Part shown: in pieces, positions 2,042-22,500 of the stretch
Layout: each line of letters begins with the position of its first letter
Position numbering within the stretch: position 1 is the stretch's first letter
Assembly: GCA_964443495.1 (NCBI GenBank)
Contig: CAYUCS010000002.1
Span: 196,021 to 260,020, forward strand
Direction: 5' to 3'
DNA from: an uncultured Gammaproteobacteria bacterium
GTDB lineage: Bacteria > Patescibacteriota > Patescibacteriia > Patescibacteriales > GWE2-39-37
DNA: 64,000 nt
Translations under genes and position numbers: made by a program
Notes under the pieces: model-generated
Databases searched by the model: none
What the model saw: the letters and a program-made list of their open reading frames with translations, nothing else
Told to the model about the DNA's origin: nothing

Positions 2042-2051
2042 CAAATTTTAT

Positions 2052-2060: not shown

Positions 2061-2087
2061 GTTACCTCGTCTTTTTTAAAAATCTTC

Positions 2088-5000
2088 CTAGTACTTGTTA
2101 ATCTTGACTGAGCCATCAATCTTCACGCCACCCCGGATGCGGGTCGAACCGCCATCCTCGTCGGCACCGATATCCCAGACACCGCCAATCGGACGCATCT
2201 GGCCATCAATATCTGTCATAAACGGCAAATATGGGTCATTGGCCAGACTTGCACCGGCATCGCGCGCGGCAGTATCGGTGTTGGAAAGGTGAAAATCACT
2301 CGAAGAAGCGTTAACGAAAATTACTGTCTGATTTGTTTTAGCATTGGAGCCATTCGCTGTCGCATCTTTTGAAAGATTGTTAGTCGAGCCAGCTTTCGGC
2401 GTGCCCGTGTAATCAACGCCATTGTTGTATGAGACATTATTCGAGTAGTACGAGTTGCTGGTCTGGGCGATGCCAATCGCATTGCCGTAAACGGTATTAT
2501 TATAAACGGCGGTGATGACGCTTGCTGAATTCAATGCCAATTTTATGCCGGTAGAGCCAGCAAAAGTGAAGCCATAAATAATATTGTTATTAACCTTAAC
2601 CTCTGAATCAGTGCCAGTCCAATAAACACCATGGCTAGCATACGTAGAGCTAGCATTCCAGATGATATTATTGGCAACAACCTGGCCCTTGCCGTAAAAC
2701 GGACTATTAGAAAAAACCCCAGAGCTGCCAAGAGTTTTTATTTGCAAACCCTCGACCTGGAAATAACTGATGTGGGTCGCGATTATTCCCTGTCTTACAA
2801 ACTTAGAATCATCCCATTTTCCAAGATGCCTCTGGCTGCTATTCGCCTCTGAATCGGTATCGTGTGGGGTATAAATACGCACATAGTTGTTCGGTCCCGT
2901 CGTGAAATACCCTATCGAGGACAATCCGCTAGAATCGGGGCCGCCGTCAGAGTAGCAAGGTATATTCAATACATAACCTTCTCCGACCAGATTGTTCGTG
3001 TTGAGATGGGTGCTATTTTTTACTCCAAAATTCTGATAATCGTAATCCTGATATGGAAACGCGTCATTAAGCGAGCCAAATGCATGCGCGATCGAGGCAA
3101 CCGGCGCAGTAGTGGTGGCCACTGGCAGTGTGCCCGTAGCGGAGGTGCAGCTCCAGGCTGTTTGTGATAACTTGCCGGCGATGTAGCACTTGTTTGAGCC
3201 ATAAGTCACCACATCTCCAACGCCCATATTTGAGGCCGTCTGGGCTTCAGAGAAAGTGGCGGTCGAGCCGCTAACCGTCACCGTTGGCGAGCCGGTCTTG
3301 TGGTCGTTCGTATTCTGACCGACAGAGTAATAAATCTGCGCCCCAGTCTCGTCCGCGCCAATATCCCAACCCAAACCCTTGCCTCGCGCCTGAGTATCAA
3401 CGTCCGTATTAAAGGCATAATTCGTGTCAGCTGACAAATCAGCGCCGGCATCGCGGGCGTACTTATCTGACAATTTCAAGCGGTAATCGCTCGACGAAGC
3501 GTCCATAAATTCCACCCTTACCCCATTCTTCGAATTAGTGCCAGGCGCATCAGAAGCAAGATCGGACAAATTATTACCAGATGAAGCGTTAAATGACCCA
3601 TGGTACCCATCACCGCAATTTTGCACAAGGTTATTTTTGGCAGTAAAAGTATTTGCCTCGGTAATTATGCCGTAATCACTATTATAGACAGTATTGTTAT
3701 AAGCGTAAGTAGTTAACCATCGTCCGTAAATGCCGCCGCTTAGCCCCCCACCGCCGGTCGGGGTGCTGAAACCGTAAACCAGATTATTTACTATAAGCAT
3801 TACGCCGGCGTTGCCGCCGCCGGAATAATTGACAATTCCGCCACCGCCGCCAGCATTAGCGCCAGAGACCGCTCCGGTATATTTCACTATGCAGTTGGAC
3901 ACCTCGACCTTGCCCGAACCGCTGGCAGACCTCCTGATGCCGTCATTCGTATAACCTCCCGCGCCCTTGGCCTCCACTTGAAGGCCGTCAATCTTTGCAT
4001 ATGCCGCTGTTATAGTCATCGCATTGCCCGTATCGCTAACTCCCAAAGAATATTTGCCGTTATCCCACTTTCCGCTATGCCGCTGGGTTTGATTGACTTC
4101 TGTCAATACATCGTTCGGCGCATACGCTTTTATATAGTTGGGCACTGCCGTTGTGAGGCCGCCTATTGTTACTATTGTCGTATCCTGGCTGCTGTCATAA
4201 TAGGCTGGCAGGTTAAGCTGCAGGTTGGCGGCGTACATGTCCGTTCCATTCATGTGCGTGGCATTGCCCGCTCCAGCAATGGCGGCCGAAAGCGAAGTGA
4301 ACTCGCGCGTGATGGAATCGACCGGCGAATTGGTGATGTTGGCCGGCATGGTGCCGGTGGCCGTCACCACGTACCAGACGGACGTTGAGGCCTTGCCCGA
4401 TATATAGGCCACCGAACTCGAACTGTTGTAAGTCACGCGGTCGCCCACGCCGATATTCCCTGTCTGCGCCGCTGAGAAGGTGGCCGTGCCCGAAGCGATG
4501 GTCACCGTCGGTGAGCCTGATTTCAAATCATTAGTAGTCTGCCCGACGGAATAATAAACGGCATTAGCCGGCTCATCGGCCCCGACGCTCCATGAACCAG
4601 CCCGACGCATCTGACCGTCCACATCAACATTGAAAGCTGAATTTGCATCAGCGCTCAAATCTGCTCCGGCATTTTTTGCAGCCGAATCTGATGGCGATAG
4701 ATGGAAATCCTTGTTCAAAGAGTCGGCAAACACGATATTTTGCGAAACCTTGTCATGGACATTCCCTCCGCCTGTCACAGTGTAGCCCAGACTGGAATTG
4801 GTAGTAACATTGTAGTCACTGCCGGACGCATAAGTATTGCCGCTGTGGAAATCGGCTACGCACCCGCTTAGCAAATTATTCTTCACCAACGCGATGGCCG
4901 TGCTGATTGCGAACGCCTCTTTGCAATTGACAGCCGTATTATTATAAACGGTCAAATTTCCGGTAGTGCCGGCCCACATAGAAAGCTGCACAGCAATGTT

Positions 5001-8000
5001 ACCAAGCGCTCCGGTCAATGGCTTGAAGTCTTGGAAGATATTATTGCTGATAATAAGATTGCCGACATTGACCGCCCCGGCCGGAAACGAAGAAATGGCA
5101 TAACCTGAATAAATACCGGTGGAAACGGCCTTGAATATGTTATTGCTGATTCTGATATCGCCGTAATCGTTAAGTGTCATGCCACCGCCGCCAGAAAAGC
5201 CTGAATTCACCTTGGCAATCTGCAATCCTTCGAATCGCACATGTTTGGCCGTGATATCGAAGGCGTAATTGTTACTATCTGCAATTTCAATCCTGGACTT
5301 ATAATCATCCCATCTGCCGTTGTGCCGTTGCGACTGATTGACCTCAGCCGTAGTGCTTGCCGGAGCATAAAAATTAATATAATTCGGCTGTGACGTAGTC
5401 CATCCGCTGATCGCCACGCTAGCGGTGTTCGCCCCGGAGTCGTAATACAATGGAAAATTAAGCTGATAATTGCCGGCGTACAAGTCTGACGTATTCAAAT
5501 GATTAGCGTCAATCGCACCTGATTCAGCGGTTGAGATGGAATTATAGGCATGGGCAATGGAATTAACCGTAGCGCCCGTCGCAGCGACCGGGGCGGTGCC
5601 GGTGGCCGTGGCGCAGTACCAAGCCGTGGTCGAAGCCTTTGATGTGATGTAGCATTTTTCAGTCGTGTTGTAGGTGATGACGTCGCCAACGCCTAAATTG
5701 GTAGCGGTCTGGGCGGCGGAGAACGTAGCCAGGCCAGTGGTCGAGCTGACAGTCACCGTCGGCGTACCGGTCTTGTGATCGCTCGTATTTTGTCCAACGG
5801 AATAATAGATAGCGACCGCCCCTTCATCGGCGCCGATATCCCAACCGCCCTGATTGCCGCGAGTGTGGCCGTCAAAGTCGGTACCAAAAGAGAAATTGGC
5901 ATCAGAACTCAAGTCTGCGCCGCGGTTGCGGGCGGTCGAGGAGGCGGCCAGGTGATAATCCTTGTTTAACGCATCAGCGAACTGGACGGTGGTTGTTGTC
6001 ATGGAATTAGCTCCTGGCGCCGTCCCATCGGAAGAAATATTGTTGCCGGCATAATCAAAACCGTAATTTTCGTAACCGACAGCCCCTGGATTGACTTGAA
6101 CGATGTTGTTGTAAATGGATATCGGTCCGCCCACATTAGTACTGAACGAAATGCCGACTTCATTCACGTTAACTACCGTATTGTTATATATGGCGACCTT
6201 TACCGGCTCGTAAGGATAGTTCATTCGGATTCCCTCGCCATAATCGTAAACAATATTATTGAAGACGTAAAAATTGGTATTATTATATCTATTTGTGATG
6301 CCCGACGAACCGATGCTTGGCGTCGTGCTGCCGGTTTTTCTTACGATATTATTGGAAATAATTACCACTGCCGACCTATCATCAACATCAGAGACAATTC
6401 CTTGCAAATTACTTGTCTCATCTATAGCGTTATCGATTTGCAAGCCGTCGATAGTAACGCTGCCGTCAATGATGGCGATATTGTTATATTGCCAATCAAA
6501 ATTTACTCTCGAATTGAATTTATTGTCATCCCATCGTCCCTGATGGCGCTGCGAAGCGTTTGCCTCGCTAGGCGTGTTCGGGGTATAAATCTTGATGATA
6601 TTATTCGGACTGGTCTTGATTCCCTCTATGGTCACATGATCGGTATCGGGCCCGGAATCAAAATAGCACGGCAAATTCAGTTGATGATTGGAGGCGGATA
6701 TATCGGCCGTATTCAGATGGCTGGCGTCGATCGACCCCGCAACGGCATTTGCCAAAGAATCGAATGCGTGCGCAATCGAACCGACCGTAGCGCTCGTAGT
6801 GGCTACTGGCGCCGTGCCGGTGGCAGTTTGGCAATACCAGGCGGTCGTCGAGGCTTTGCTTGTGATATAGCACTTGTCCGAGCCATAGGTGATGACATCG
6901 CCCACGCCCATATTGCTGGCGGTCTGGGCGACACTGAATGTGGCGATCCCGGTGGCCGAGCTTATCGTCACCGTCGGCGAGCCTGTCTTGTGGTCATTCG
7001 TATTCTGGCCGACGGAATAATAGACAGCTGTCGCGCCTTCGTCGGCGCCGATGTCCCACGAACCAGCGCGGGCGTGGCCGTCAATGTCGGTGCTGAAAGC
7101 AAAATTGGCATCAGCGCTCAAATCTGCGCCGATGTTGCGCGCGCTGCTTGAGGCCATCAGATGGAAGTCCTTGTTGGCGGGGTCGATGAATTGGATCGTT
7201 GTCGTAGTCAACGAGTTCGCTCCCGGGGCAGTCCCGTCCGAGGAGATGTTGTTTGAAGAGGAGGCGTTGAAGCTGCCCTGAAAGCAGGTGCCAGCTCCGC
7301 AATTTTGGGCGATGTTGTTCTTTGCAATCATATTGCCGCCAACCGCTACCCTGAATGACCAATAGCTATTGTTCACCGTATTGCCATACGCCACCAGGCT
7401 CGCACCATTGTTGACGACAAAGCCGTCACCGCCATCTCCGGCAATATCATAGCTTATATTATTGTAAGCTACCGCATTGCCAGCGGCGCACTCAAGTATC
7501 GCCCCGTAATTCGTCAGGCCACTTGAAACGATGTTGCTGGAAAAATACGCGGTCGAATTAGTGTCTATCAAATTGGCCCTAAAGGCTTGGACCCAACTAC
7601 CGGTTGATGTAAGTTTAACCTGCAAGCCCTCAATCCTGACATATGAATCACGGACTTCCAGGGCGGTCAGATCGCTGCCCGTGACATCGAGCGAATACTT
7701 GTTGCTATCCCACCTGCCACCATGGCGCTGTGACACATTCGCCTGCGTAGCCGTGTCATTGGGGGTGAATATTTTCAGATAGTTGCTCGGTCCCGTTGTT
7801 CTATCAGAAACGATAAGGTTGGTCGTATCCGGGCCGGAATCATAATATAACGAGAAATTGACTTGGAAATTAGCAGTAACCAAATCATAAGTATTTATAT
7901 GATCAGCATCCGAATAGCCTGCTTCGGCCGCGGCCAATGAGGTGTACTCCCTCTTGATCGAAGTGACCGGAGCGCTGGATGTCGCCTCAGGCAAGGTGCC

Positions 8001-11000
8001 GGTGGCAGTCACCAAATACCAAGCGGAAGTCGAGGCTTTGCCGGAGATATAATAAATAGTATTCGTGGCCACGGTTACTCTGTCGCCCACGCCAATGTTC
8101 CCTGTCTGAGCGGTTGAAAAAGTTGCTAGGCCAGTTGAGCTGGATATAGTGACGGTTGAAGTGCCAGTTTGCAGATCGGCCGTCGATTGACCGACAGAAT
8201 AATAGACTGGGGTTGCACCTTCATCAGCACCGATGTCCCAAGCCGTACCGTTTGGCCGGACATTGCCATCGATGTCAGCGTTAAAGTTAAAATCAATATC
8301 GGAGCTCAAATCAGAACCAGCGTTACGAGCGGCCGATGAGGCAGCAAGATGGTAATCTTTATTAGAGGCATCAACAAACTGAACTGTCGTTGTTGTCAAC
8401 GAATTGCTGCCTGGTGCCGTGCCATCGTATGAGATATTGCTAGTTGATGACGCGTGAAAATCACCGTCATAATCAACGCTGCCGGAATAAACTATATTAT
8501 TTTTTGCCAATATTATACGGCCTCCTCCTCCTGGCCCACGAGTATAAACTCCGTCATTGCCTGCGATTATCGTATTGTTATACAAATAGGTCAAGCCGCT
8601 TATTCCGATGGCGTTGTATGAATCATCTCTAAGACCATCGTCAACATCGTAGATAATATTATTTGAAATGTTTATTGAATAATGGTTTCCGGATTCCGGT
8701 TGAATTCCTATTTTAAAATTACTTGCATTTTTATTGCCCTTTACGATATTTTTATTTATATTGATTCCCGACGTACCATCGCTAATGTCCTGAATCAATA
8801 TTCCATTTGCTGGGTCATATTGGTTGTTGCCGAATTCGATTTGGATTCCCTCAATTTTTACATAATCATCGCTTATCGTAATTCCCGACGCAGGATAATT
8901 CTCAATATCATTCTTTATCGAATATTTCGAATCATCCCACTTGCCTTGATGTCGTTGTGATTGGTTAACCTCGACTGTCGAGCTGGCGGGAGTGTAAATT
9001 TTTATATAATTCGGCTGAGCTGTGGTCCAACCATCAATTGTTACGGCGTTTGCATCGGGACCGCTGTCATTATAGCAAGGAAAATTCAATTGATAATTAC
9101 CGGAATAAAGATTGCTAGTGTTTAAGTAATCTACACCAGTAGCATCAGTTTCTGCCGTATTTAGAGAGTCGAAGGCATGAGTGACTGAATCCACAATTGC
9201 ATCGGTCACTGCAAATGGAACAGTGCCGGTGGCAGCTTGACAATACCACGCCGTGGTCGAGGCCTTGCTCGTGATATAGCACTTGTTGGTCGTGCCATAA
9301 GTAATGACATCCCCCACGCCCATGTTTCCGGCTATTTGTTCTTCTGAAAATGTAGCTAAGCCAGTGGTTGAGCTGACGGTCACGGTCGGCGTGCCCGTCT
9401 TGTGGTCGCTCGTGTTCTGACCGACTGAATAATAAACAGCGACCGCCCCCTCATCAGCGCCGATGTCCCAACCGCCCTGATTGCCACGTGGATGGCCGTC
9501 GATGTCTGTGTTAATTGCCAGATTAGAATCGGCACTCAAATCAGCGCCGACATTACGCGCCGTCGAAGAGGCAGCCAGATGGTAATCCCTATTTAAAACA
9601 TCGGAAAACTGAACGGTTGTAGTAGTCAAAGAGTTAGTTCCAGGTGCCGTACCGTCGGAAGAAATATTATTTCCAGCATAATCGAAACCGTAATTCTCAT
9701 ACGCTATCGCCCCGGGATTTGCTTGGACAACATTATTGTAAATAGATATCGGCCCTCCCAAATTTGTGCTGAACGCAATACCGACTTCATTCACATCGAC
9801 TACCGTATTATTATAAATAGCAACCTTGACCGCCGCATAAGGATAATTCGTGCGAATTCCCTCGCCATAATCGTAAACTATGTTATTCCAGACATAAAGA
9901 CTGGTGTTATTATACCTATTATAAATACCGACCGAACCAGTACTTGGTGTGGTGCTGCCTGTTTTTCTAACTATGTTGTTGGAAATATTGATTACGGCTG
10001 AATTATCATCGACATCAGAAACAATGCCGTTAACATTGCTGGTCGCGTCAATCGCATTATCAACCTGCAAGCCGTCAATGGTGACGCTGCCATCAAGAAT
10101 GATTATGTTTTGATAATCAGTACCGTTGCTTACCTTCATACTAAACTTACCATCGTCCCACACGCCTTGATGTCTCTGGCTCTGATTCGCTTCATTAATG
10201 ACACTGTTTGGCGTATAAATTTTTATAAAATTTGCCGGATTGGCTAGGTATCCATCAACAACTATTTTTGAATCGGGGCCGCTATCGTAATAGCAAGGCC
10301 AATTCAATTGATAGTTGCCGGTCACCAAATCAGAAGTGTTCAAATAACTGGCTCCGCCAGATCCCGCCTCGGCCAAGCTTAGGGAGGAAAAAGCATGCGC
10401 GATTGAAGCCACGGTCGCGCTGGTCGTGGCAACTGGCATGGTGCCGGTAGCGGTCACGCAATACCAAGCGGTGGTGGAGGCTTTGGCCACAATAAAGCAC
10501 TTGTCCGAACCGTAGGTAATGACGTCGCCCACGCCCATATTGACGGCCGTCTGGGCGACGCTGAAGGTGGCTAAGCCGGTGGAGCTAGAGATGGTGACGG
10601 TCGGCGAGCCGGTCTTGTGGTCGCTCGTGTTCTGGCCGACCGAGTAATACACCGCCGTCGCGCCCTCATCAGCACCGACATCCCATTTGCCTGATTGTCG
10701 AGCGTGGCCGTCTATATCTGTTGTGAAAGCGAAATAAATATCCGCGCTCAAATCAGCACCGACGTTGCGCGCCGTCGAAGAGGCGGCCAAATGGAAATCA
10801 TCATTGGCATAATCGGCGAACTGCACAGTGGTCGTGGTCAGCGAGTTGGACCCGGGGGCGGTGCCATCGGAAGAGATGTTGTTTGAGGAAGAGGCGGAAT
10901 ACCCGGTTCCGAAGTTGATGTCCGTATTCTGGATAATATTGTTTCTCAATGAAATATTCGCCTTAGTGCCGGGAGTTACGCCGTAATCAGAGTTGATTAT

Positions 11001-14000
11001 GGTGTTGTTATAGACATAAGCGGTCGGATTGGCGCCGTTGATGATTACTCCGCTCGCGTCATTGCCCGGATTAGTGAAATCATATATCAGATTATTGTAA
11101 ACGTAATAAGTCGGATCGGAGTCGCCGATATTTATTGCTCCTATTGGCTGACTTATGTCATTAACAATTCTGGCTTTGAAAATATTGTTCGTGATATGCT
11201 CCTTGCCCGCGGCCAAGCTGTTGAGATACAGCACATCAGCGCCGGTGACTCCGGAGTAGTCGTAATAGAACTGCAAGCCATCGATTGTCACGTTCTCATC
11301 ACTCACGGAAATCAGCGGCGCGAAAGTCAGATAGATGCTGAATTTGCGATCATTCCAAACGCCTTGGTGGCGCTGACTGACATTGGCCTCTGTCGCAGTA
11401 TCAGTCGGCGTGTATATCCTGATGCCGTTATCCGCCCCTGTCGTGTACCCATCTATAGTCACGTCGCCGGCATCGGGACCGGAATCATAATAACACGGCA
11501 GGTTCAAAGACATACCCGCCGCGAAGAGATCGGTGGTGCTCGCATGGTTGGAATCGCTCGCTCCGGTTACAGCTGCCGAAAGTGAAGTGTATTCGCGCTT
11601 GATCGAGGTGACGGGCGCACTGGTCGTGGCAGCCGGTGCCGTGCCGGTAGCTGTCACGACAGACCATTGCGTCGTCGATATCTTGCCAGAAATATATACG
11701 ATCGTGGTAGTGGCAATCGTCACTCGGTCGCCTACGCCGATGTTCCCGGTCTGGGCAGTTGAGAAGGTGGCGAGGCCGGTCGAGCTGGATATGGTGACGG
11801 TCGAGGTGCCAGTCTGCAGATCGGCTGCCGATTGTCCGACTGAATAATAGACAGATTTCGCCGCCTCGTCGGCGCCGATATCCCAAGCGCTACCGCTTGA
11901 CGAACGGTCTATGCCATCGACATCGGAGCTGATGGCATAGCCGGATGCGGCGCTCAAGTCCGTGCCGGCGTTCTTGGCGATCGTGTCTGACGGAGACAGG
12001 TGGAAATCCTTGTTCATCGCGTCAGCGAACGCGACCGTTGCCGAATTCTTGGAATTAGCTCCCGTGGCATCTGCTGCGAAATTGGAGACGTTATAATTTG
12101 ACGGCGCATCGAAAGTGCCGCTCCAACCGTCGCCCGTCGCTTGGGCGATATTGTTTATGGCATATATGGTAGTATTCGATCCTGAATCCAGATAAGCATT
12201 GTAAGTGTTAGCCACTGTGTTGTTATAGGCATAGCTCAAGCCAGCACTAAAATAAATACCCTTGTTATCGTAAGTGCCATTGACGAAGTCGTAGATGATG
12301 TTGTTGTCTATCTTATACTTCGAATTCCAAGTCCTAATCCAGATTCCGTTGTTTCCGGAGCTAGTCCCGCTGAAATTACCCTTGATCAAGTTGCCCGAAA
12401 CTCTGATGTCAGTATTCGCCCCGCCGCCCTCCAACCGGAAACCGCCCGTGGCAAAGACGCCGGCTCCTCCGGCTTTGATTTGCAGCCCCTCAGCCCTGAC
12501 AAAATCGCTATATATCTCAAGGGCCTGTTTGCCGGTATAAGCGACCTCCAGCCGGTACTTGCCGCTGTCCCATTTTCCGGAATGGCGCTGCCCCGAGTTA
12601 GACTCGATGCTTGTGCTTGTTGGCGCGTAAACCCTGATGTAATTAGCCGGACCGGTCAGATAGGTGGCGCCGATTGTAACTTGTGCCGTATCCGGTCCCG
12701 AATCGTAATAGCACGGCAGATTCAGCTGGTAATCATTACTGACCAGGTCGGCTGAATTCATGTGCGACGAATCTGATGAACTGGCCACCGCGCCAGCTAA
12801 CGAAGCGAATGCGTGCTTGACCGAAACGACGGTCGCGCTAGTGGTCGCCGCTGGCAGGGTGCCGGTGGCAGTAAGACAATACCATCCGGTGCTCGAGGCC
12901 TTGGCGGTGATATAACATTTATCCGAACCGTATGTTATCGCGTCACCGACGCCCATATTGGCGACAGTCTGTGCCTCGGAAAAGATAGCCAATCCAGTGG
13001 TCGAACTGACTGTCACGGTCGGCGAACCTGTCTTGTGGTCATTCGTATTCTGACCGACGGAATAATATACCACCTTAGCCGCCTCGTCGGCACCGATATC
13101 CCAAGCGGCAGCACTCGGACGAGCGATGCCGCCGAGGTCGTTGCTGAAAGCATATCTAGCGTCCGCGCTCAAGTCAGTGCCAGCGTCCTTGGCAGAAGCA
13201 TCAGTCGTCAGCAGGTGAAAATCCTTGCCCGTAACGTCGGCAAAGGTAACTGTCTGGTTCCTGCAGCTATGACCGCCACAATCGGTTGACCCGGAATTGG
13301 GCGAGGTCGCATCCTTCGAAATATTCGAGGCGTAAGCCGTCGTTACCGAACCGAGAATCTGCGAAACGTCATAATCGGTCGTATTGCCGTATGAAATATT
13401 ATTTTTGAAACTAACGACGACATTCGCATTATTTGCCGCATAGCTGGCATCAATGCCTTTCCCAGAGTTGTATATGGTATTGCTATGGATAAACACCTGC
13501 TTGGATGCGGAAGCTTGACCTCGCAACCAAAAACCATTCGACTGCTGGTCATAGACCAAGTTATTGGAAGCATATAGCCTCTGCGGTAAATTATACATGG
13601 AGCCTTGGGCATAAAAATACACGCCAGAAGAAGTGGCTGCGGCTGCAGACCTCTTAATAATGTTAGAATCGATTCGATATTCGCTCTGAAGCGTGCCCGG
13701 TTGCAATTCCAAGCCGTAAACGTCACCCGTATTAGTATTGTTAATCTGTAAGCCTTCAATGCGGACATAGGCAGCGCTGACGTTGAGGGCGCCGTTAAAA
13801 TTTCTGGATACCGACAGATTGTATCTAGCGTCGCTCCACCCGCCCTGATGCCTTTGCGATTGATTCACTTCGGTTGCCGTGTTATACGGCGTGTATAATC
13901 TGATAAAATTCGGTGCGGCAGTGATATAGCCTTGCACTGCTGTATAAACCGCGTCTGCACCGCTATCGTAATAACAGGGGAAATTCAACTGATAGTTGCC

Positions 14001-17000
14001 GACTGCCAGATTGGCGGTGTTCAGATAGGACGCGCCGCTGGCTCCGGTCACGGCAGAATTCAAGGCCGAGAAGGCGTGGGCGATCGAAGTGACCGTCGCA
14101 CTGGTCGTGGCCACCGGCATCGTGCCCGTTGCCGTCGAGCAATACCAGCCCGTACTTGAAGCCTTGGCAGTTATATAACATTTGTCCGAACCATAGGTAA
14201 TGACGTCGCCGACGCCCATATTGACCGCCGTCTGCGCGACCGAGAAAACAGCCAGGCCGGTCGAGCTGGAAACCGTTACGGTCGGCGTGCCGGTTTTGTG
14301 GTCGGAAAGATTCTGGCCGACCGAATAATACACGGCAGCCGCTCCTTCATCAGCGCCGACGTCCCAGGAGCCGGTGCGTACATGACCGTCGATATCGGCG
14401 CTGATTGAGTAACCGGAATCCGCACTCAGGTTGACGCCAACATTACGAGCCGTGCTTGAAGCGGCCAGATGGAAATCCTTATTAGCAAGATCGGCGAACT
14501 GCACGGTAGTCGTAGTCAAGGAGCTGGAACCTGGAGCCGTGCCGTCGGACGAGATATTGTTTGAAGATGAAGCATTAAAAGAATCGGTCGATGAAAAATC
14601 TATCACATTTCCGTTAGCGATATTATTTCTTGCTACGCCTTTGAGGTATCCGTGACGCAAACCGATGTAGTTGCCATAAATGGTGTTATTATAAGCATAC
14701 CCCGCGGAAACAGTGGTCCCACCTATAATGACAATTCCAGTAAAGACGCTCATGCCGTTATAACTGTAGCCGTAAACGACATTGTTAAAGACCGCGCTTC
14801 GTCCACCCGAAACATAATTCCCTGCATAAATACCATAAGCGGAGGTTATGGCTGGATCGGAAGTTACTCCAGTGAAGTCAGCCTTGACGATATTGTTGGA
14901 GATAACCGTATTGTCTTGCGAGGCATAAATCCCGATCTTCTGCGCTCCGCTGGTGGTAGAAAATTGGGTCTTGACCTGCAAACCGTCTATGGTTACGTTG
15001 CCGATCTGGGCGTAAACGAAATAATCATTCCCGGCGGAACTCAAAATCTTCTCGATCCTGTACTTGCTGTCGTCCCATTTGCCTTGATGGCGTTGCGAGA
15101 AGTTGGACTCAGCGGTCGTGCTGGCCGGAGTATAAATACGGATTCCGTTGCCAGGACTGGTGGTGTAGCCGCTTATCGTCACGGCCGTGCCGTCGGCACC
15201 GCTGTCATAGTAGCAAGGAAAGTTAAGCTTCACGTTTGTCGTGACCAGGTCGCCCGTATTGAGATGATTGGCATCGGTCGCTCCAGCCTCAGCCGCCGAA
15301 AGCGAGGTGTATTCCCTCTTAATCGAGGTCACCGGAGCGCTGGATGTCGCTTCGGGCAGCGTGCCGGTGGCGGTTACGACGTACCAGGCGGACGATGAAA
15401 CTTTGCCCGAGATGTAATAGATAGTGCTTGTGGCTACGGTCACTCGGTCGCCTACGCCAATATTCCCTGTCTGGGCGGTCGAGAAGGTGGCCAAGCCGGT
15501 CGAGCTGGAAATGGTGACGGTCGAAGTGCCAGTCTGCAGGTCGGCCGTCGATTGGCCGACGGAATAATAGACGGCGGTCGAGCCCTCGTCCGCGCCGATA
15601 TCAAATGAAGGCTGTGACGGGCGACCGATCTTGTCGATATCGTCGGCCAAGGCCAGTTTGGGGTCAGTACTCAGATTGGCGCCGGCATTCCTGGCGGAGG
15701 CATCGGTCGCAGCCAAGTGGAAATCGTCATTGGCAGCATCAGCAAAATCCACGATCTTGTTCCTGAGAGCCGTATTCGGCGAGGTCGCGTCATGCGAAAG
15801 ATTGTTGGTCGAGGAGGCATGGAAGCTGCCGGTGTAGGCCGAGGCCGAATTCTGGACGATGTTGTTCTTGAGCACTCCCGTGCCGCCCCAGCGATATATG
15901 CCGTTGCCGCAATTATAAAAGGTATTGTTGTAGATATACGAAGTAAAGGTGCTGTCTTCGATGCCAATGCCGACGGCATTGTCATTGGATGAGCGGCGGA
16001 AGTCATAAACCAGATTGTTCCAGAATTTCAGGACGCCCGTGCCGCTGGTCTGCCACAGGTCAAGGCCCATGTGCCAATCGCCGGTCGAGGTCGCGCCTCG
16101 CAGGATGCTGTTCGAGACCCTGATATGGCTATTGTTCCCCACGGCACCCGTGACATAGATGCCCATTCGGTTCGAAGTGACGCTAGTCAATTGATCCTGC
16201 AAGCCGTCGAGCCAGACATGGCCGGTCTGCACCTGTATGCCATGATTGTTATTTATGACCAGATTGTATTTTCCGCTATGCCAAACGCCCTGATGCCGCT
16301 GGCTGGCGTTCGCTTCGGCGTTAGTGTCTGTCGGCGTATATATCTTGATGAAATTGGATCGGGCGGTGGCGTAGCCGCTGATTACGACGGGGGCGGTATC
16401 GGGTCCGGAATCGTAGTAACAAGGGATGTTAAGTTGCAGGTTGTTCGAGGCGAGGTCGGAAGTGTTCAAGTGGGTGGCATCCGAAGAGCTTGCCTCGGCG
16501 CCCGAAAGCGACGAGAAGGCGTGGGCGACCGAATTGACCGTCACATCCGTGGCGGCCGTCGGTGCCGTGCCGGTGGCCGTAGCGCAGTACCAGGCAGTAG
16601 TCGAGGCCTTGGCAGTGATATAGCATTTCTCGGACGTGTTGTAGGTAATGACATCACCGACGCCCATATTCGTTGCCGTCTGGGCTTCTGAAAATGTGGC
16701 CAGGCCGGTGGTCGAACTGACGGTCACGGTCGGCGTACCGGTCTTGTGATCTGATGTATTCTGGCCGACGGAGTAATAGACGGCGGTCGCACCCTCGTCA
16801 GCGCCGATGTCCCAGCCCGCCCCGGCTGGCCGGGTGTGGCCATCGATATCCGAAGAAAATGCCAGGTTGCCGTCAGAAGCCAGATCAACGCCGATATTCC
16901 TGGCACTTGATGAACCGGCCAGATGGAAATCCTTATTCAAAGAGTCGGCAAAAGCTACTGAAATGTTTCTGAAGGTGGCATTTGGCGAAGTGTTGTCAGC

Positions 17001-19214
17001 CGAAATGTTGTTAGTCGAAGAAGCGTTATACGTTCCCTGATAGTCACCAGCCAAGTCCCCGGTCGAGGCGCTGCCGAAGACCAGGTTGTTTTTGGCATAA
17101 ACGTCGTTTCCTGAGGCGTAGATGCCGGTGCGGCCACCCATGACCGTATTGTTGTAAATATATATGATTGATTCCGGGATATTGCCATAATACACCCTTA
17201 TTCCACCGCCATAGTCACTGGCATCATTAATATCATAGATAACATTATTCCAAATTTTGGTCACACTACCCGCCTCGGCATCAGACCTTATCCCCCAGCT
17301 ATACCGCCCCGCCCTAACACCTTTAATAATATTATTCGATATGCCATAAGTGCCATAACGACCGCCAAATTCCTGAGAAACTCCCCATTGATTGGTGGAT
17401 GTGCTTGTGATTTCAACTTGCAAACCGTCGACACTGACATCCTTATCTCGAAAAACAATGCCATTACCAGAAGAGATGAGCATTCTGAATCTGCCATCAT
17501 CCCAAGCGCCCTGATGTCTTTGACTCGCATTAGCTTCGGTAACTGTGTCGGTTGGCGTATAAATCCTAATAATGTTGCTTGCGCCAGTCGTCCAGCCGTC
17601 AACAATAACCGTTGCCGTGTCAGGACCAGAATCGTAATAGCATGGGAAGTTGAGCTGTAAGTTAGCCGCGTACAAGTCGGATACGTTCAGGTGGCTCGAA
17701 TCTCCGGCGCCAGCTTCGGCCGAAGTCAATGATGAATAGGCATGGGCAATCGAAGTGACCGTTCCTGTGGTCGTCGCCGTCGGCAAAGTGCCGGTGGCGC
17801 TCAGACAGAACCAATCCGACGTCGACACCTTCGAGGTGATATAGCACTTATCCGAACCGTAGGTTATCGCATCGCCCACGCCCATATTGACCGCTGTCTG
17901 GGCCACACTGAAAGTAACAAGGCCGGTGGAACTCGAGATCGTCACCGTCGGCGAACCGGTCTTGTGATCGCTCGTGTTCTGGCCGACCGAGTAATAGACA
18001 TGCGTTGAGCCTTCATCGGCGCCGACATCCCATTCGCGCGAAACCGGGCTGGTGGTAGAGCGTAAGTGTCCGTCAATATCTGTGCTTAATGGCAGATACG
18101 GATCGCTGCTCAAATCAGAACCGACGTTGCGCGCCGAAGAAGAGGCGGACAAGTGGTAATCTCTGTTCAATGGATCAGCAAAGGCCACGGATGTCGAAGT
18201 GACCGAGCCGGTGCCTGGAGCGGTGCCGTCCGACGAAAAATTGTTCGCTGCTGAGTCCAAATTGCTCGTGTTATAGTCAGTGCCATTGCCAGACGATAAA
18301 TTATTTTTCAAATACAACCCCGGAGTCGCGTTGCCGTTCAAGTCGATTCCATAGCCGTCATTATCTACGGTCGTGTTGTTGTAAACGATATAATTGACGG
18401 CATTGGTGTCCGTATCGGAAACTATTCCTCCATAATAACCATAAACCACATTATTCCAGACCTGGTAATTCAGGCTGCCGTCCAGATAAACGCCGATGCT
18501 GGCGGCGGAATTAGTTCCGGGGCCGCTAGCACGCACGATCAAGTTGGAATACCTGTGCAGGCTCTCAGCGCTCGAACTTGTCGTCCTAATACCCTTGATT
18601 TGTTCGCTCTTGTCCGCGACATTATCAATCTGAAGGCCATCGAGCCAAATATACGTATCCTCCACGGTAAGCGCGTTGCCATAGCCAGAATCAACTGACA
18701 GGCTATACTTCCCGCCATCCCATTTTCCCTGATGTCGTTGCGAGAAATTGGACTCGGCGGTAGTTGAGGTTGGGGTGTAAATCTTAATAAAAGTGGTTGT
18801 GGCGGTAGTATAGCCCGCTACGTTGGCCGTGGCGGTATCAGGGCCTGAGTCGTAATAACAAGGCAGGTTCAGGATAAAATCGCCTCCAACTAGGCTGCTG
18901 GTAGCAGCATGATTGGCGTCACTAGCCCCAGCGATGGCGGCAGCCAGCGAGGTGTATTCGCGTTTGATTGAGGTCACCGGCGCGCTGGAGGTTGCTTCGG
19001 GCATGGTGCCGGTGGCGGTTATTACATACCAGTCGGTCGCCGATGACTTGCCGGAGATATAATAGACGGTATTGGTGGCCACAGTCAGGCGGTCGCCCAC
19101 GCCGATATTGCCGGTCTGGGCGGTCGAGAAGGTGGCTAGGCCAGTGGTGCTAGAAATGGTGACAGTCGAGGTGCCGGTCTGCAGGTCAGCCGTCGATTGG
19201 CCGACGGAATAATA
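2088..19214 (-). repeat. 14 tandem ~1.2-kb coding modules (intragenic repeat array) with a 3-module super-period
   Basis: YYSVGQ codons found at 19197..19214, 17979..17996, 16761..16778, 15552..15569, 14313..14330, 13050..13067, 11832..11849, 10632..10649, 9417..9434, 8187..8204, 7005..7022, 5790..5807, 4539..4556 and 3315..3332. Spacings are 1182-1263 nt. Confidence 0.9.
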
Positions 19215-19331: not shown

Positions 19332-19375
19332 TTTATGCTTGTGGGTGCATTAGAATCCAGCGCTTATTCTTTATT

Positions 19376-19384
19376 ATTATATCA
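19376..19384 (-). promoter_or_regulatory. Extended -10 promoter TGATATAAT of the 5747-aa gene
   Basis: The reverse complement reads TGATATAAT inside the block CAGGTGTGATATAATAATAAAGAATAAGCGC. The same block is repeated upstream of the 4499-aa gene (33071..33079). It lies ~45 nt upstream of the ATG at 19331. Confidence 0.65.
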
Positions 19385-19472
19385 CACCTGTGTCATTTTG
19401 GTTATCAAATTATCCTTATTGATTGATATTTTATTAGCTATTTTACACCACATTTTTAATGTTTTTGGCAAA

Positions 19473-19525: not shown

Positions 19526-22500
19526 CTACTCTATCCTCATCTTTCCATCAATAATCATCTTACCCTGTCTGACCCTGGTCGTGCCGTAAAATGCCGTATC
19601 GCCGTCCTCGAAAGCGCCGATATCCCAGGCGCCGCCGAAGTTTCGAGCGTTCCCGGCGATATCGATATTGAATGGCAAAAGCGCGTCAACAGAAAGGTTT
19701 GCCGCTGAATTTCTAGCAGCTGAATCGAACGGCGACAAGCGGAAATCGCTGGACGAAGCATTGATGAATCGGACAACTTGGTTGCGGCAGCCGTGCCCTC
19801 CGCAATCGGTCGCACCAGCATTCGGCGAGGTCAGGTCGAATGATAAATTATTCTGATACTGCTGGGTCACGTTGCCGCCCAAATCAAAGGCGAAATCATC
19901 GCTACCGGCACTGGACAGATTATTTTTCAAATTAACGTAAGCGACTGAGGCCGGGTAACCCCACTGCCCGAATCCGACATCTGCGATACCGTAAACCGTA
20001 TTGTTATATACGTTAATCGTCGCTCCTGGCTGAATGTTGTTGGCCGAACGTATGCCGCCGCCCCAGCCGTAAACGATATTATTGTAAATATCGATGGAAT
20101 AGCCGCCCGAATTCACGCCGTATTCTGCCGGGCTGCCGTTGCGAGAAGGTAGCCTCACAATACTGTTGCTTATCTTCACTCCTTCCGCATTGGCGCTATA
20201 GCCAACTCGGGCATCGGTCTGCGTTGCGACGTGCTCGATCTGCAGGCCGTCCACGACAGTGTACGGCACCCCGATATACAGGACCGAATCCCAGCGTGTC
20301 GCGCCGTAGGACAAGGCGAACTTCGAATCGTCCCAAATACCAGCATGCCGTTGCGAGGAATTGGCTTCGGAAGAAACGCTATTCGGCGCGTATATCTTGA
20401 TATAATTCAAGGCCGAAGCCGTGTAACCGCTGACCGTAACCCTACTCAGATCATGACCGGTGTCGTGATAGGCCGGGAAATTGAGCTGGTAATTGCCGGT
20501 GACCAAATCCGATGCGTTGAGATGGCTAGCGTCAGTCGCGCCCGCCTCGGCCGCGGACAAGGAGGCGTAGGCATGGGCGATCGAGGCGACGGCCGCGCTC
20601 GAAGTCGCGAATGGCGAGGTGCCGGTGGCCGTGACACAGCGCCAAACGCTCGTCGATATTTTTTCAGAAATATAGCATTTGCTGGAAGCTGCGCCATAAG
20701 TAATAACATCCCCTACGCCCATATTAGCCGCCGTTTGCGCCTCCGAGAAAGTGGCCAAGCCCGTAGTCGAACTGACGGTCACGGTCGGAGCGCCGGTCTT
20801 GTGGTCGTTAGTATCCTGGCCGACGGAATAATACACTGGGGCCGGCGCCTCATCCGCCCCGATGTCCCAACCGAGCCCGTTGCCGCGTGCCTGGCCATCA
20901 ATATCGGCACTGAAGGTAAAATTAGCATCAGTGCCCAAATTGGCGCCGGCATTACGGGCCGATGAAGAGGCAGCCAAGTGATAATCAGCATTCGCTTCAT
21001 CGACAAATCGGACGTCTATCGATGACGTGCTATATGTGGCATTGGGCGCGTCGCCAGCCACGTCCGATATATTGTTGTCGGATGCAGATGAAAAAGTGTG
21101 CGTCGTATAATTGGCAAAGCCTTCGGCGCAGCCTTGCGTGATATTGTTTTTCAGTATTGAATTTTCAGCATATTGACCATAAACGCCGATGTCGCAATTT
21201 ACGATGGTATTGTTATAGATATAATGCTTATTTGTCGGAACATATATCGACGATGAGTTGCTGCCGGACAATTTCTTGTAGCCGTAAATTATATTATTGT
21301 AAACTTTGGCGTTCGTGTAGTCGTAACCCAGCTCGATGCCGCGCCCGATATTCGTGATAAGTTGAGTCGATTTTATTATATTATTTCTTAAAATTACATT
21401 ATTTGCGTAAACGACTATGCCATCAGGCATATTGTCAGTGTCTCGCTCGATTTGCAGGCCGTCTATGACAGTGTGGTCTGCCTGGATAGTATAAAAATTA
21501 CCATAGCTACTCCCCAAGGTTCTGTAGCTTGAATTATTCCATTTTCCGCCATGTCTTTGCCTGGAATTAACCTCGGTCACGGCATTTTCTGGCGCATACA
21601 ACCTGATATAATTAGGTGCGCCAGTCGTAAAGCCGATAATATCAACTTCTGCCGCATCGGCACCGCTGTCGTAATATGCCGGTAAATTAAGTTGCAGGTT
21701 CGCCGCAGTCAAATCAGAGGTATTCATATGGCTGGCATCTACCACTCCAGATATTGCCGCCGACATCGAAGTATATTCACGCTTGATCGAATCGACGGTC
21801 GAATTCGTGATGTCAGCCGGCATCGTGCCAGTGGCTGTCACCAGGTACCAGACCGTGGTTGAGGCTTTGCCGGAAATATACGCTACCGAACTGGAGCTGT
21901 TGTAAGTCACGCGATCGCCCACGCCGATATTGCCAATCTGTGCAACGGAGAAGGTGGCGGTTCCAGAGGCGATGGTCACCGTCGGCGAACCGGTCTTCAG
22001 ATCGGCTGTCGATTGCCCGACGGAATAATAGACAGCGTTGGCGGCCTCGTCCGCGCCAATGTCCCAGATTCCGCCATTCGGCCTGGGTTGACCGTCAATG
22101 TCGGCAACAAAGGAGAAATACGGATCGACACTCAAATCCGTGCCCGCGTTTTTGGCTACAATACCGCCTGGCAATAGGTGAAAATCCTTGTTGGCCGAAT
22201 CCGCGAATTGGACGGTCACGGAATTCTTGGAATTAGCGCCTGGTGCGTCGGCAGCCAAATCGGAAATATTGTAATCAGAAGATGAATGCATGACCGACTC
22301 GTAAAACCCGTTGACAGAATTCTGGACAATATTATTCTTAAATGAAACTGCCAAACCGCTACTATCGGTAAATCCTGTATGACAGTTATATGCAGTATTA
22401 TTGTAAACATACACGCCCAGATCATTCCAAGAATTAGAAAAATTATAGCAACGCCCACTGCTGGAGTTGATATCACGAAACCCGTAAATCAAATTATTAT

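Follow-up and report, generated by a model that had tools for sequence, protein, structure and literature searches.

Two adjoining giant genes of an uncultivated Candidatus Falkowbacteria (Patescibacteria/CPR) bacterium encode tandem modules that resemble one another at their ends and differ in their middles. The taxon assignment rests on GroEL, which has 95% identity to a Falkowbacteria GroEL. The question is which processes produced this pattern. An earlier note on this DNA proposed a ligand-recognition repertoire that is diversifying in its middles and is kept in register by gene conversion of its ends.

Organization of the locus

Genes A and B lie in the window, the 64,000-nucleotide stretch of DNA that was analyzed (Table 1). 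Their reading frames are open for 17.2 and 13.5 kb, respectively, and the N-terminal signal peptides visible in both translations mark the products as Sec-secreted chains. Protein B is P0244 when called from a downstream start. Module boundaries were set at [VI]YYSVGQ, giving a total of 25 modules of 388-436 residues (~400 aa). The head consists of an uncharacterized N-terminal β domain of roughly 100 aa (YYSVGQ...GVGD...SQRHQGxWD motifs) and the first helix rungs, the core is formed by the five to six central rungs of a right-handed parallel β-helix, and the cap contains the last rungs and a choice-of-anchor-Q-like DxDGxxR...WDIGADE motif. The NCBIfam choice_anch_Q model (NF041518) sits on the cap and scores 84 bits over 7 stretches of protein B (cut-off 25). 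The modules in this window matched no Pfam model at E ≤ 1 and no PDB sequence. Neither A nor B has a recognized C-terminal sorting signal, and the window contains no reverse transcriptase and no phage context.

Table 1. Positions of the genes, modules and shared or divergent segments within the window
Feature	Position	Strand	Description	Basis
Gene A	2088..19331	-	5,747 aa; signal peptide then 14 modules (A1-A14)	ORF list, translation, [VI]YYSVGQ segmentation
Gene B	19526..33025	-	4,499 aa; signal peptide then 11 modules (B1-B11)	ORF list, translation, [VI]YYSVGQ segmentation
Module A8	9438..10652	-	head 10155-10652, core 9678-10154, cap 9438-9677	
Module A11	5811..7025	-	head 6528-7025, core 6051-6527, cap 5811-6050	
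38-nt exact match	10603..10640	-	A8 head, matching B5 head (28044-28081)	exact match confirmed
62-nt exact match	29217..29278	-	longest in register; B4 head start, matching B7 head start (25608-25669)	
5′ block of gene A	18845..19390	-	common to gene B (32539-33084)	pairwise alignment; coordinates approximate
A8/A11 mutual-closest block, A8 side	9654..10103	-	central helix rungs and first cap residues, alignment columns ~196-392	sliding-window identity
A8/A11 mutual-closest block, A11 side	6027..6476	-		sliding-window identity
Divergent patch in A13 head	4212..4364	-	residues 66-116; 31/50 differences from 98.2%-identical L001	

Divergence is concentrated in the core

Mean identity over 300 module pairs is 63% in amino acids and 62% in nucleotides for heads, 26% and 40% for cores, and 54% and 57% for caps; modules are ~50-60% identical overall in nucleotides. 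The degree of divergence varies strongly from one part of the module to another, and the observation of conserved heads and caps around divergent cores in the earlier note is confirmed. There are 24 distinct core types among the 25 modules. Every core pair other than A8/A11 is at most 36% identical in amino acids, and a floor of ~25% core identity restricts what these values say about the depth of paralogy. Synonymous divergence (pS) between modules is near saturation (head 0.72, core 0.80, cap ~0.79), and codon identity at same-residue sites in cores is 0.407 versus 0.410 at random. The claim of conservation down to the nucleotide level was overstated, as only 19.6% of the nucleotide columns in heads are invariant and no run invariant across all 25 modules exceeds 5 nt. 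Exact runs between modules are nevertheless above chance.

Column-wise conservation of the window modules follows that of 120 proteins from other genomes (Spearman 0.82), and all 14 external arrays tabulated have head identities of 0.43-0.72 and core identities of 0.24-0.35. Because this profile extends across the family, ends and middles can differ as they do without a locus-specific mechanism. The pattern is real, and its source is mostly old divergence and purifying selection.

Conversion-like tracts lie in the first half of the head

The 38-mer shared by the A8 and B5 heads is exact, as reported, and exceeds a null in which codons were shuffled among modules that share a residue in a given column (200 shuffles). 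Seven in-register exact runs of at least 38 nt were observed versus 0.2 under the null, and the longest run was 62 nt versus 34 nt; 0/200 shuffles reached the observed values. The 62-nt match between B4 and B7 lies within a ~270-nt tract of 84-100% nucleotide identity (maximal-segment synonymous test, p = 0.0009). The 5′ block common to A and B starts ~59 nt upstream, includes there a 32-nt identical TATAAT-containing element, spans the signal peptide and ends after the first ~125 head codons. It has a nucleotide identity of 84-98% and a third-position identity of 0.53-0.93, and identity drops downstream; between the cores of A1 and B1, amino acid identity is 23%.

The conversion-like tracts are ~100-400 nt long with about 85-100% nucleotide identity and third-position identities of 0.6-1.0. 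They link only heads that share a subtype, within each gene and between A and B, and stay within the first half of the head, roughly its first 90-135 codons. In A1-B1, B4-B7, B3-B6 and B5-B8, third-position identity is about 0.6-1.0 over head columns 0-90/135 and at background beyond; in B4-B7, B5-B8 and A1-B1 the opening 30-90 codons reach 0.8-1.0, and codons further along the same module are at the random level. Protein-level constraint cannot account for such a drop within one module. The remaining head and the cap have a third-position identity of 0.36-0.38 versus 0.28 at random, and the earlier proposal of gene conversion fits these early-head tracts, not homogenization of whole heads and caps. 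The maximal-segment test gave 5 pairs with p ≤ 0.001 versus 0.3 expected, with all segments within columns 0-91. Once corrected for 300 pairs, single tracts reach only moderate significance, and 1 passes Bonferroni. Site-specific codon preference early in the head could inflate these within-pair tests, and the column-preserving shuffle controls for it. A PHI-like test on third positions gave p = 0.018 for the head and p = 0.001 for the whole module.

Head subtypes are cyclic and disagree with core genealogies

Heads belong to three subtypes (S, N1 and N2) in cyclic order along the array, hence the 3.6-kb period. In A, B and arrays L010, L002, L009 and L005, heads show identity maxima at lags 3, 6 and 9, and the 3.6-kb period also occurs in arrays from Moranbacteria and Parcubacteria. 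The order of heads is kept from lineage to lineage, and cores show no periodicity. Quartet bootstraps give heads one topology (955-1000/1000) and cores another (941-972/1000). The cap goes with the core in the discordant quartets (930-998/1000). This discordance is compatible with either conversion of heads or a swap of core and cap, and both the discordance and the tracts of excess synonymous identity fit gene conversion or recombination.

The A8/A11 core duplication is old

Modules A8 and A11 share a core, as the earlier note recognized, at 78% amino acid and 74% nucleotide identity versus 36% amino acid identity for the second-ranked core pair. Their caps are 82% and their heads 74% identical in amino acids. 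The modules were correctly recognized, at positions (5808..7022 and 9435..10649) that were 3 nt off, and their start-to-start distance of 3,627 nt agrees with the ~3.6 kb given. The claim that the core was copied recently does not hold. The A8/A11 pS is 0.69 in the head, 0.735 in the core and 0.67 in the cap, and where the residue is the same, codon identity reaches 0.50 versus ~0.40 at random. Near-saturation at synonymous sites makes the core copy an old one. The corresponding pN values are 0.21, ~0.13 (0.129) and 0.09, with an omega of ~0.05. No core duplication in the locus is younger than A8/A11, yet this one is old, and strong purifying selection keeps the two cores alike.

Sliding-window identity in the A8/A11 block is 0.69-0.88 versus 0.41-0.67 for the best other module; beyond the block, other modules are closer to each than A8 is to A11. 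The specific block excludes the head and the neighboring modules, and the neighboring pairs one period apart have cores that are 26% (A9-A12) and 33% (A10-A13) identical. The shared segment is a single ~450-nt block, not a copy of the whole super-repeat.

Cores are stable between strains and lineages

In orthologous module pairs, pN of the core is about equal to pN of the head and cap, and pN/pS is well below 1. These ratios indicate that cores change no faster than heads and are under purifying selection. Moranbacteria modules match the cores of A3, A4, A12 and A14 at 50-58% identity, and nothing else exceeds 0.33. Several core types thus have Moranbacteria orthologues, which argues that the repertoire is ancient and stable and not diversifying. 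Strain contig L001, from an independent ENA assembly, matches positions 1702-4481 at 98.2% identity, and the two cores covered contain one synonymous and no non-synonymous change. A donor for the divergent patch in the A13 head was not found in any of the other 24 window modules. Within its divergent patch, L001 has a stop codon in frame.

Variable core positions face outward

The AF2 model of A8 (pLDDT 95.5, pTM 0.94) has an N-terminal β domain followed by a three-stranded right-handed β-helix; a two-module model is not confident (pTM 0.56). Foldseek matched only β-helix enzymes and phage β-helix proteins, and weakly. The best matches to solved structures were 5c1e, 7dmk, 5gqc and 9cdu (best E 8.5e-3, TM at most 0.41), and the best fold match to phage β-helix proteins had E 1.9e-6. 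In the core, the T2 turn (0.84) and PB3 (0.44) have high column identity compared with PB1 (0.19), T1 (0.14) and T3 (0.15). The interior is kept, with 36 interior columns staying hydrophobic, the Asn turn is retained, and indels are limited to T1, PB1 and T3. The variable core positions are the outward-facing and loop positions of PB1, T1 and T3. DSSP strand order and textbook β-helix topology would place them on one face, and each core would present a different groove, built from PB1 together with loops T1 and T3. Fold and context suggest that these proteins probably act outside the cell as multivalent binders, with surface polysaccharides or similar polymers as ligands, or possibly as depolymerases of such polymers. 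An episymbiotic CPR cell would likely use them for attachment to a host surface.

Discussion

The pattern is probably the outcome of three layers. Cores would be anciently separated paralogous types, each under purifying selection at about the head's rate. Heads and caps would be held by common family-wide constraints, with three old head subtypes placed cyclically. The first half of the head would be further homogenized among same-subtype modules by conversion-like tracts. Over deep time, heads would also have been exchanged relative to core and cap. The interpretation in the earlier note is partly supported.

A possible but less probable account is that recombination at conserved flanks relocated or replaced core or core-cap units between modules, arrays or genomes while heads stayed in S-N1-N2 order. 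It would explain why caps track cores in discordant quartets, why head order is kept across lineages with no periodicity in cores, and why A3-type and A12-type cores stand behind head subtypes S and N1 in Moranbacteria and N2 here. The patchy spread of the family across phyla, which suggests horizontal transfer, also favors it. However, the near-identical third-position tracts end mid-head and not at the head-core junction, the promoter, signal peptide and head block common to A and B is left unexplained, and no recent core transfer is visible, with A8/A11 the only core pair above 36%. Such shuffling is compatible with the three-layer explanation as an additional, older process.

Active diversification of a ligand repertoire, with ongoing conversion of whole heads and caps and a recent A8/A11 copy, is improbable and largely contradicted. 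Conserved ends around divergent cores, exact 38-62-nt matches between modules and between both genes, variability at surface and loop positions, and an A8-A11 distance of exactly one 3.6-kb period agree with it. Against it, pS is near saturation in heads and caps overall and in every region of A8/A11, the A8/A11 block comes without its head or neighbors, orthologous cores change at a rate no higher than that of heads, core sequence is stable from strain to strain, and unrelated genomes share the conservation profile.

Tree-like module duplication with region-specific constraint and no recombination, the short identical runs arising from conserved peptides and codon bias, is very unlikely. The family-wide profile, the near-saturated average synonymous divergence and the failure of most single-pair tests to reach significance after Bonferroni correction agree with it. 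It does not account for runs that shuffles preserving peptide and column codons never reached, the early-head tracts in B4-B7, B5-B8 and A1-B1, or the well-supported conflict between head and core quartets. Nor does it account for modules m1 and m4 of the Moranbacteria array L002, where head and cap have pS values of 0.45 and 0.46 versus a core pN of 0.57. Chimeric assembly of metagenome repeats is highly improbable: the source contig is metagenome-derived and L001 has its stop, but normal k-mers resolve modules with this nucleotide identity and a longest exact repeat of 62 nt, both long frames are open, and the independent ENA assembly repeats the segment that it covers.

The modules resemble right-handed parallel β-helix (pectin-lyase-like) extracellular proteins (PF13229 Beta_helix, PF05048 NosD, polysaccharide lyases, pectin methylesterase, GH136 and rhombotarget A) in their three-stranded rungs, the Asn-Asn turn ladder between PB2 and PB3, the variable T1 and T3 loops around PB1 and their extracellular location, and some module homologues carry PF13229 or PF05048. 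They differ in the absence of a Pfam match, the uncharacterized head, the low fold TM and the chaining of 11-14 complete helices in one polypeptide. The cap motif FHL...A.N.G.DLS.D...DIDG..R....WDIGADE is matched by NF041518, a family that marks surface or secreted proteins, and homologues found carry T9SS (PF18962) or pilin-like (PF07963) signals. This model, however, spans ~58 aa of a 400-aa module, and single modules score 17.7-18.1 bits, below cut-off.

Phage tailspikes are mosaics in which a conserved N-terminal adaptor carries an exchangeable β-helix receptor-binding domain. Tailspikes and capsule depolymerases, like these modules, join a conserved N-terminal part to sequence-unrelated β-helix bodies with recombination near the junction, but the genes here are cellular CPR genes and their modules are linked covalently in one chain instead of forming separate trimers. 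Like tandem-repeat bacterial surface proteins under concerted evolution, antigenic-variation cassettes (pilE/pilS, vlsE and msp2) and DGRs, the arrays have a variable center between conserved flanks, inter-repeat conversion-like tracts and discordant genealogies. The repeats here are ~62% rather than nearly identical in nucleotides, every unit is expressed in frame, without silent donor cassettes, the variable centers are stable between strains, and no reverse transcriptase lies in the window. The giant proteins of ultra-small or predatory bacteria (Omnitrophota 'Archaeovorins' and dockerin-type giants), for which roles in adhesion or cell-wall attack have been proposed (bioRxiv 10.1101/2023.11.21.568195), are likewise very large, repetitive and predicted to be extracellular in reduced-genome, host-associated bacteria. 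Their domains are unrelated to those found here (HEAT, TPR, dockerin and an antiparallel β-helix tube), whereas proteins A and B are smaller, at 4.5-5.7 kaa, and repeat a single module type.

Results

Genes A and B are tandem arrays of one module

Genes A and B lie on the same strand and open with near-identical signal peptides (MLxSLSNxFKANAIKNMLALAGxFLFFACAxSAxAAT). Both proteins are built wholly of tandem units that start with [VI]YYSVGQ and are 388–436 aa long. The reading frame is kept in 25/25 modules, all within the two ORFs. The 25 modules (A1–A14 and B1–B11) were aligned with MAFFT and divided into a head (columns 0–179, through SQRHQGxWDD), a core (columns 179–380) and a cap (columns 380–476, SSxNNIS to WDIGADEG).

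Coordinates of the features in the window, head tracts and best-partner identities
Feature	Position	Strand	Nucleotide identity	Third-position identity	Description
Gene A	2088..19331	-			ORF, 5,747 aa, 14 modules
Gene B	19526..33025	-			ORF, 4,499 aa, 11 modules
Module A8	9438..10652	-			
Module A11	5811..7025	-			
A8/A11-specific block	9654-10103 (A8), 6027-6476 (A11)				Delimited by sliding identity
Cys-pair columns in A8	10455-10500				Head columns ~50-66
A13 head patch	4212-4364				Residues 66-116; 118-270 in L001
Upstream segments	19332-19390 (A), 33026-33084 (B)				~59 nt before start codon
C-terminal tails	2091-2160 (A), 19529-19610 (B)				~25 aa
Small ORFs	33228-33785, 33794-34366	-			185 and 190 aa
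TPR protein	34374-36803	-			809 aa
Signal peptidase I gene	39101-39667				
Kelch/FN3 gene	39781-46884	-			2,367 aa
Complex-I-like cluster	55128-62307	-			
V/A-type ATPase subunit	62911-63834				
B4-B7 tract	head columns 0-90		1.00 to 0.84	1.0 to 0.6	Third-position ~0.3-0.45 in remaining head
B3-B6 tract	head columns 0-75		0.87-0.96	0.60-0.87	
B5-B8 tract	head columns 0-30		0.93-0.98	0.80-0.93	
A1-B1 tract	head columns 0-135		0.84-0.98	0.53-0.93	
Best partner	head N-terminal half		0.82	0.62	
Best partner	head C-terminal half		0.64	0.45	
Best partner	core		0.47	0.36	
Best partner	cap		0.66	0.46	

The segments upstream of A and B are almost identical; 32 nt within them (CAGGTGTGATATAATAATAAAGAATAAGCGC, which contains a TATAAT box) match exactly, and A and B probably share a promoter. 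Beyond their last WDIGA[DF]E motif, A and B end in similar basic tails (…TRIRGGVKIDGSVKINKY and …TRVRQGKMIIDGKMRIE), and a comparable tail is present in P0245, a 6,257-aa protein from another genome. No known model matched the A and B tails, which may serve in anchoring or sorting. A second protein, P0244, was rejected as an orthologue of B because it is B itself from a later start codon.

Two small ORFs without a Pfam match lie directly upstream of gene B and are adjoined by a TPR protein on the same strand; these genes may have a functional connection to A and B. The product of a third large gene contains Kelch repeats and seven or more FN3/purple-acid-phosphatase-N-like domains, and a signal peptidase I gene is directly downstream of this gene. 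The 40–44 kb stretch is compositionally odd, with a GC content of 0.58–0.60 versus ~0.50 elsewhere and a GC skew of +0.16 to +0.25. A complex-I or group-4-hydrogenase/Mrp-like subunit cluster, with a V/A-type ATPase subunit nearby, contains a fused 30-kDa/49-kDa subunit (NiFeSe_Hases match) and NuoH-like, two Proton_antipo_M and NuoB-like subunits, which is noteworthy for a CPR genome. GroEL is 95% identical to Falkowbacteria GroEL, and we infer that the organism belongs to the Falkowbacteria.

Heads and caps are alike and cores diverge

Mean identity over the 300 module pairs was 63% aa/62% nt in the head, 26%/40% in the core and 54%/57% in the cap, which bears out the earlier note's description of similar heads and caps around divergent cores. 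A8–A11 is the only similar core pair (78% aa, 74% nt), and the runner-up has 36% aa identity. The 38-mer that had been reported as identical between two modules is an exact match, and such runs exceed the number expected when codons are shuffled among modules that agree in residue at a given column (200 shuffles). Seven runs of at least 38 nt were observed versus 0.2 expected, and the longest in-register match was 62 nt (B4 versus B7) versus 34 nt expected, values reached in 0/200 shuffles. Conservation down to the nucleotide level is nevertheless untrue in general: the 25 modules share no invariant run of more than 5 nt, and only 19.6% of the head nucleotide columns are invariant. Synonymous proportions (pS, Nei-Gojobori) are near saturation in every region (head 0.72, core 0.80, cap 0.785). 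Full concerted homogenization is not seen at these head and cap values of nucleotide identity and pS.

The similar A8 and A11 cores appear to be old

The A8 and A11 cores had been taken for a recent copy, a reading contradicted by their synonymous sites. The A8–A11 pS values are 0.685, 0.735 and 0.674 for head, core and cap, with non-synonymous proportions (pN) of 0.21, 0.13 and 0.09 and an omega of ~0.05–0.13. Codons are identical at 62/124 (0.50) of the core sites with the same residue versus ~0.40 for random codons. This near-saturation argues for an old duplication, apparently kept by strong purifying selection, rather than a recent copy.

A8 and A11 are mutually closest only over alignment columns ~196–392, and their heads are each closer to other modules; head columns 40–70 of A11 are 91–95% identical to B5. 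The spacing of the pair, 3,627 nt, is one super-repeat (~3.6 kb) as had been noted, but the shared block covers ~450 nt and is not a super-repeat copy. The cores of the neighboring modules are unrelated (A9–A12 26%, A10–A13 33%). Duplication of a whole super-repeat was rejected as the origin of the pair because neither the flanking modules nor the A8/A11 heads are specifically related.

The head/cap versus core contrast extends across the family

The A8 query found 168 relatives in many metagenomes, mostly single-module proteins of 400–700 aa. When the 25 modules were aligned with 120 relatives, the external proteins alone gave identities of 0.41, 0.25 and 0.41 for head, core and cap, and the external and in-window conservation profiles correlate column by column (Spearman 0.82). 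A one-genome-per-species scan yielded 50 loci in Moranbacteria, Parcubacteria, Falkowbacteria, Desulfarculales, Planctomycetes, Nitrospiraceae, Omnitrophota and others, many with ORFs of 5–10 modules. Heads were 0.43–0.72, cores 0.24–0.35 and caps 0.45–0.68 identical in every tabulated array. The shared profile of external relatives and arrays argues that the contrast belongs to the family and is not locus-specific.

The cores were not found to evolve faster. Between orthologous modules of different genomes, pN is about the same in all three regions and pN/pS is well below 1. The pN values are 0.09, 0.10 and 0.14 (head, core, cap) for Desulfarculales UBA702 versus UBA696 (pS 0.40–0.51), and 0.04, 0.02, 0.10 and 0.15, 0.10, 0.16 for Desulfobacterales pairs. 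An independent ENA contig from a close strain (L001) matches window positions 1702–4481 at 98.2% nt, and in this single strain pair the cores of two modules, A13 and A14, differ by one synonymous and zero non-synonymous changes. The idea that the core is merely the fast-evolving part was rejected on the equal orthologous pN. The same data speak against the diversifying repertoire proposed in the earlier note: the pN/pS comparison found no excess of non-synonymous change in cores, and the cores are stable relative to L001.

Core counterparts were found in Moranbacteria/Parcubacteria arrays for A3 (module m2 of array L005, 0.58), A12 (L005 m1, 0.51), A4 (L002_16804 m1, 0.53) and A14 (L009 m2, 0.50); no other core exceeds 0.33 identity to any of these four. 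Judged by these comparisons, the cores appear to be ancient types that are each conserved separately, and their low mutual identity would reflect deep paralogy and type-specific constraint, not a faster clock.

One patch in the A13 head differs from L001 at 31/153 nt, with both flanks identical. The differences comprise 21 synonymous and 8 non-synonymous codons and an in-frame TGA in L001. No donor was found among the 24 other modules (best identities 0.73 and 0.70), and there was no allele bias, which leaves intra-locus conversion unsupported for this patch. Its source may be a diverged allele or an array beyond the window, and the remainder of the 407-kb contig may hold further arrays or donors.

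The three-module period appears to be old

Three head subtypes, S (QSTADLQ...VYYISGK, without a Cys pair), N1 (QNTSDHK...G-SDKCYIT...WYC) and N2 (...NTTEKCYIT or GTTNKCYIT), follow one another in the order S-N1-N2 along both A and B. Head identity is 0.67–0.74 at lags 3, 6 and 9 versus 0.59–0.62 at other lags, and the cores have no periodicity besides the A8–A11 pair. The lag-3 signal and the subtype motifs, in an unchanged cyclic order, recur in the Parcubacteria array L010 (lag 3 0.69, lag 6 0.65) and in the Moranbacteria arrays L002 (0.89), L009 (0.75) and L005 (0.65). This recurrence argues that the 3.6-kb period is an old architectural feature rather than a mark left by recent duplication of 3.6 kb.

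The Cys pair KCYIT…WYC is conserved in N-type heads, and S-type heads carry VYYIS…WYV, pointing to a disulfide that only the N subtypes would have. At the position of a third Cys (PCYYD), modules A10, A12, A13, B4, B7, B10 and B11 have Ala or Leu. P0245 has both a YYSVGQ head and a divergent second type of head (KIYRSVAPSATGAL…DNIGVGD…) within a single chain, which extends the head family beyond the three subtypes of the window.

Short tracts are shared among heads of the same subtype

Nucleotide and third-position identities drop sharply partway along the head in specific module pairs (random third-position identity 0.279). Pair-specific tracts of synonymous excess with sharp ends occur only in head columns 0–90/135 and involve B4–B7, B3–B6, B5–B8, A1–B1, A8–B5 and A11–B5. 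The A1–B1 block extends over the signal peptide and ~59 nt upstream; the A1 and B1 cores have only 23% aa identity. A maximal-segment synonymous test within heads gave five pairs at p ≤ 0.001 versus 0.3 expected, each moderately significant, and the top segments all fall within columns 0–91. With third positions coded as R or Y, a PHI-like four-gamete test returned p = 0.018 (head) and p = 0.001 (whole module). The version with all codon positions (head z = -8.4) was set aside, since the sites of one codon are not independent.

Head and core genealogies disagree in two of three quartets. With L005 m2 and L005 m1, the heads of A3 and A12 join each other in 1000/1000 bootstraps, the cores join their cross-class orthologues in 941/1000 and the cap sides with the core in 930. 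The quartet of A12 and A14 with L005 m1 and L009 m2 is likewise discordant (head 955, core 972, cap 998), and that of A4 and A14 with L002_16804 m1 and L010 m4 is fully congruent. The A3 and A12 heads are 0.73 identical versus 0.52–0.57 to the heads of their core-orthologues. In Moranbacteria L002, the lag-3 pair m1/m4 has head and cap pS values of 0.45 and 0.46, with a core pN of 0.57. The discordant quartets and the L002 values argue that heads, and caps in some arrays, have younger and different histories than the cores.

Together with the pair-specific tracts and the best-partner identities, the discordant genealogies support gene conversion in a restricted form, as putative short tracts that connect same-subtype heads and fall mostly in the N-terminal half of the head. 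The gene conversion of the earlier note survives to this extent and does not hold for whole heads and caps, given their pS. Either conversion of heads or swapping of cores plus caps could account for the discordance.

The module is predicted to be a β-helix with one variable face

The AF2 model of A8 (pLDDT 95.5, pTM 0.94) has an N-terminal β domain at residues ~1–100, and DSSP assigns 5–6 regular strand triplets (PB1-PB2-PB3) between residues 181 and 331. The module is modeled as a right-handed parallel β-helix of the pectin-lyase-like type. NN dipeptides at 225/226, 256/257, 281/282, 306/307 and 328/329, with hydrophobic positions flanking the turn, form an Asn ladder with stacked aliphatics at the PB2–PB3 turn (T2 column identity 0.84). 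Core column identity is 0.84 in the NN turn and 0.44 in PB3 versus 0.19 in PB1, 0.14 in T1 and 0.15 in T3. Core indels occur only in T1, PB1 and T3, and 36 interior core columns are hydrophobic in at least 70% of the modules. The ligand groove of pectate-lyase-like proteins is formed by PB1 and the T1 and T3 loops. Placed on the DSSP strand order of the model, the variable positions are those of PB1, T1 and T3, which by textbook topology would line one face, as the earlier note expected. Divergence is thus neither uniform along the module nor scattered through the interior, which stays hydrophobic.

Foldseek matches were weak and all β-helix proteins. The solved structures (E ≥ 8.5e-3, TM ≤ 0.41, sequence identity 11–16%) were pectin methylesterase 5c1e, PL6 alginate lyase 7dmk, GH136 lacto-N-biosidase 5gqc and rhombotarget A 9cdu; phage β-helix proteins gave a best E of 1.9e-6. 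Conserved R160, H161, W165 and Q196 are candidate catalytic residues only. Pfam had no meaningful match in single modules, PF13229 and PF05048 had none in A8, A11 and B4 even at E ≤ 1 and match a minority of homologues, and the module profile matched no PDB sequence. The choice-of-anchor Q model NF041518 matches the cap, scoring 84 bits over seven stretches of protein B (cut-off 25 bits) and a sub-threshold 17.7 and 18.1 bits on single modules A8 and A11. Some homologues carry PF18962 (T9SS) or PF07963; A and B end in the short conserved tail. A two-module model of A8+A9 (23-sequence alignment; pLDDT 76.7, pTM 0.56) has a disordered junction and supports no conclusion on inter-module packing.

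Discussion

The main value of these results is corrective: the pattern of alike heads and divergent cores is no sign of recent copying or ongoing diversification. It is a natural example of ancient, stable specificity types beside a scaffold partly homogenized by short conversion tracts within one repeat unit, with a three-module periodicity older than the divergence of the CPR classes. We rate the family as extracellular β-helix repeat proteins with partial concerted evolution.

CPR/Patescibacteria have ~1-Mb genomes and live attached to other cells, and to our knowledge their host recognition is largely unknown. Here, 30.7 kb is devoted to two predicted secreted proteins that show ~24 different β-helix surfaces on a common scaffold. 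From the β-helix fold, the signal peptides, the Kelch/FN3 neighbor and the signal peptidase I gene, we infer that the A and B products would be multivalent extracellular binders or depolymerases of surface polymers; host attachment would be the natural guess for their role in Falkowbacteria. A head-only profile matched 1,403 cluster representatives (50% identity) at E ≤ 1e-3 among 1.84 billion, 519 of them at E ≤ 1e-30, in proteins of up to 7,731 aa and 17 heads. With ~1,400 head clusters, up to 17 modules in a chain and no Pfam model for the head, the family thus offers a concrete candidate, open to testing, for multivalent recognition or degradation of host surfaces. A full-text literature search found no description of the module family, and the domain content in a preprint on Omnitrophota giant genes is unrelated to the A/B modules (10.1101/2023.11.21.568195).

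The S-N1-N2 order, kept from Falkowbacteria to Moranbacteria and Parcubacteria with unrelated cores behind the heads, invites a speculative analogy. It is improbable, though conceivable, that the three modules form a functional unit, a single-chain pseudo-trimer with three packed heads and three different β-helix specificities. The N-terminal domains of trimeric phage tailspikes pack together. By the same long shot, the giant protein would be a string of 4–5 hetero-specific 'spikes' with cores exchangeable at conserved junctions. If real, such an assembly would amount to a host-recognition organelle of CPR episymbionts that has not been described before.

Several known systems were compared with these arrays. 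Phage tailspikes are homotrimeric β-helices with a conserved N-terminal adaptor; the models here cover a monomer and a two-module chain. Diversity-generating retroelements (DGRs) have a reverse transcriptase and a template repeat, and no reverse transcriptase domain occurs among the scanned ORFs of the 64-kb window. Cassette-type antigenic variation draws on silent donors and one expression site; here, every module is in frame within two ORFs. In both cassette and DGR systems the variable region differs between close strains, whereas the A13 and A14 cores, the two modules compared, are nearly unchanged relative to L001.
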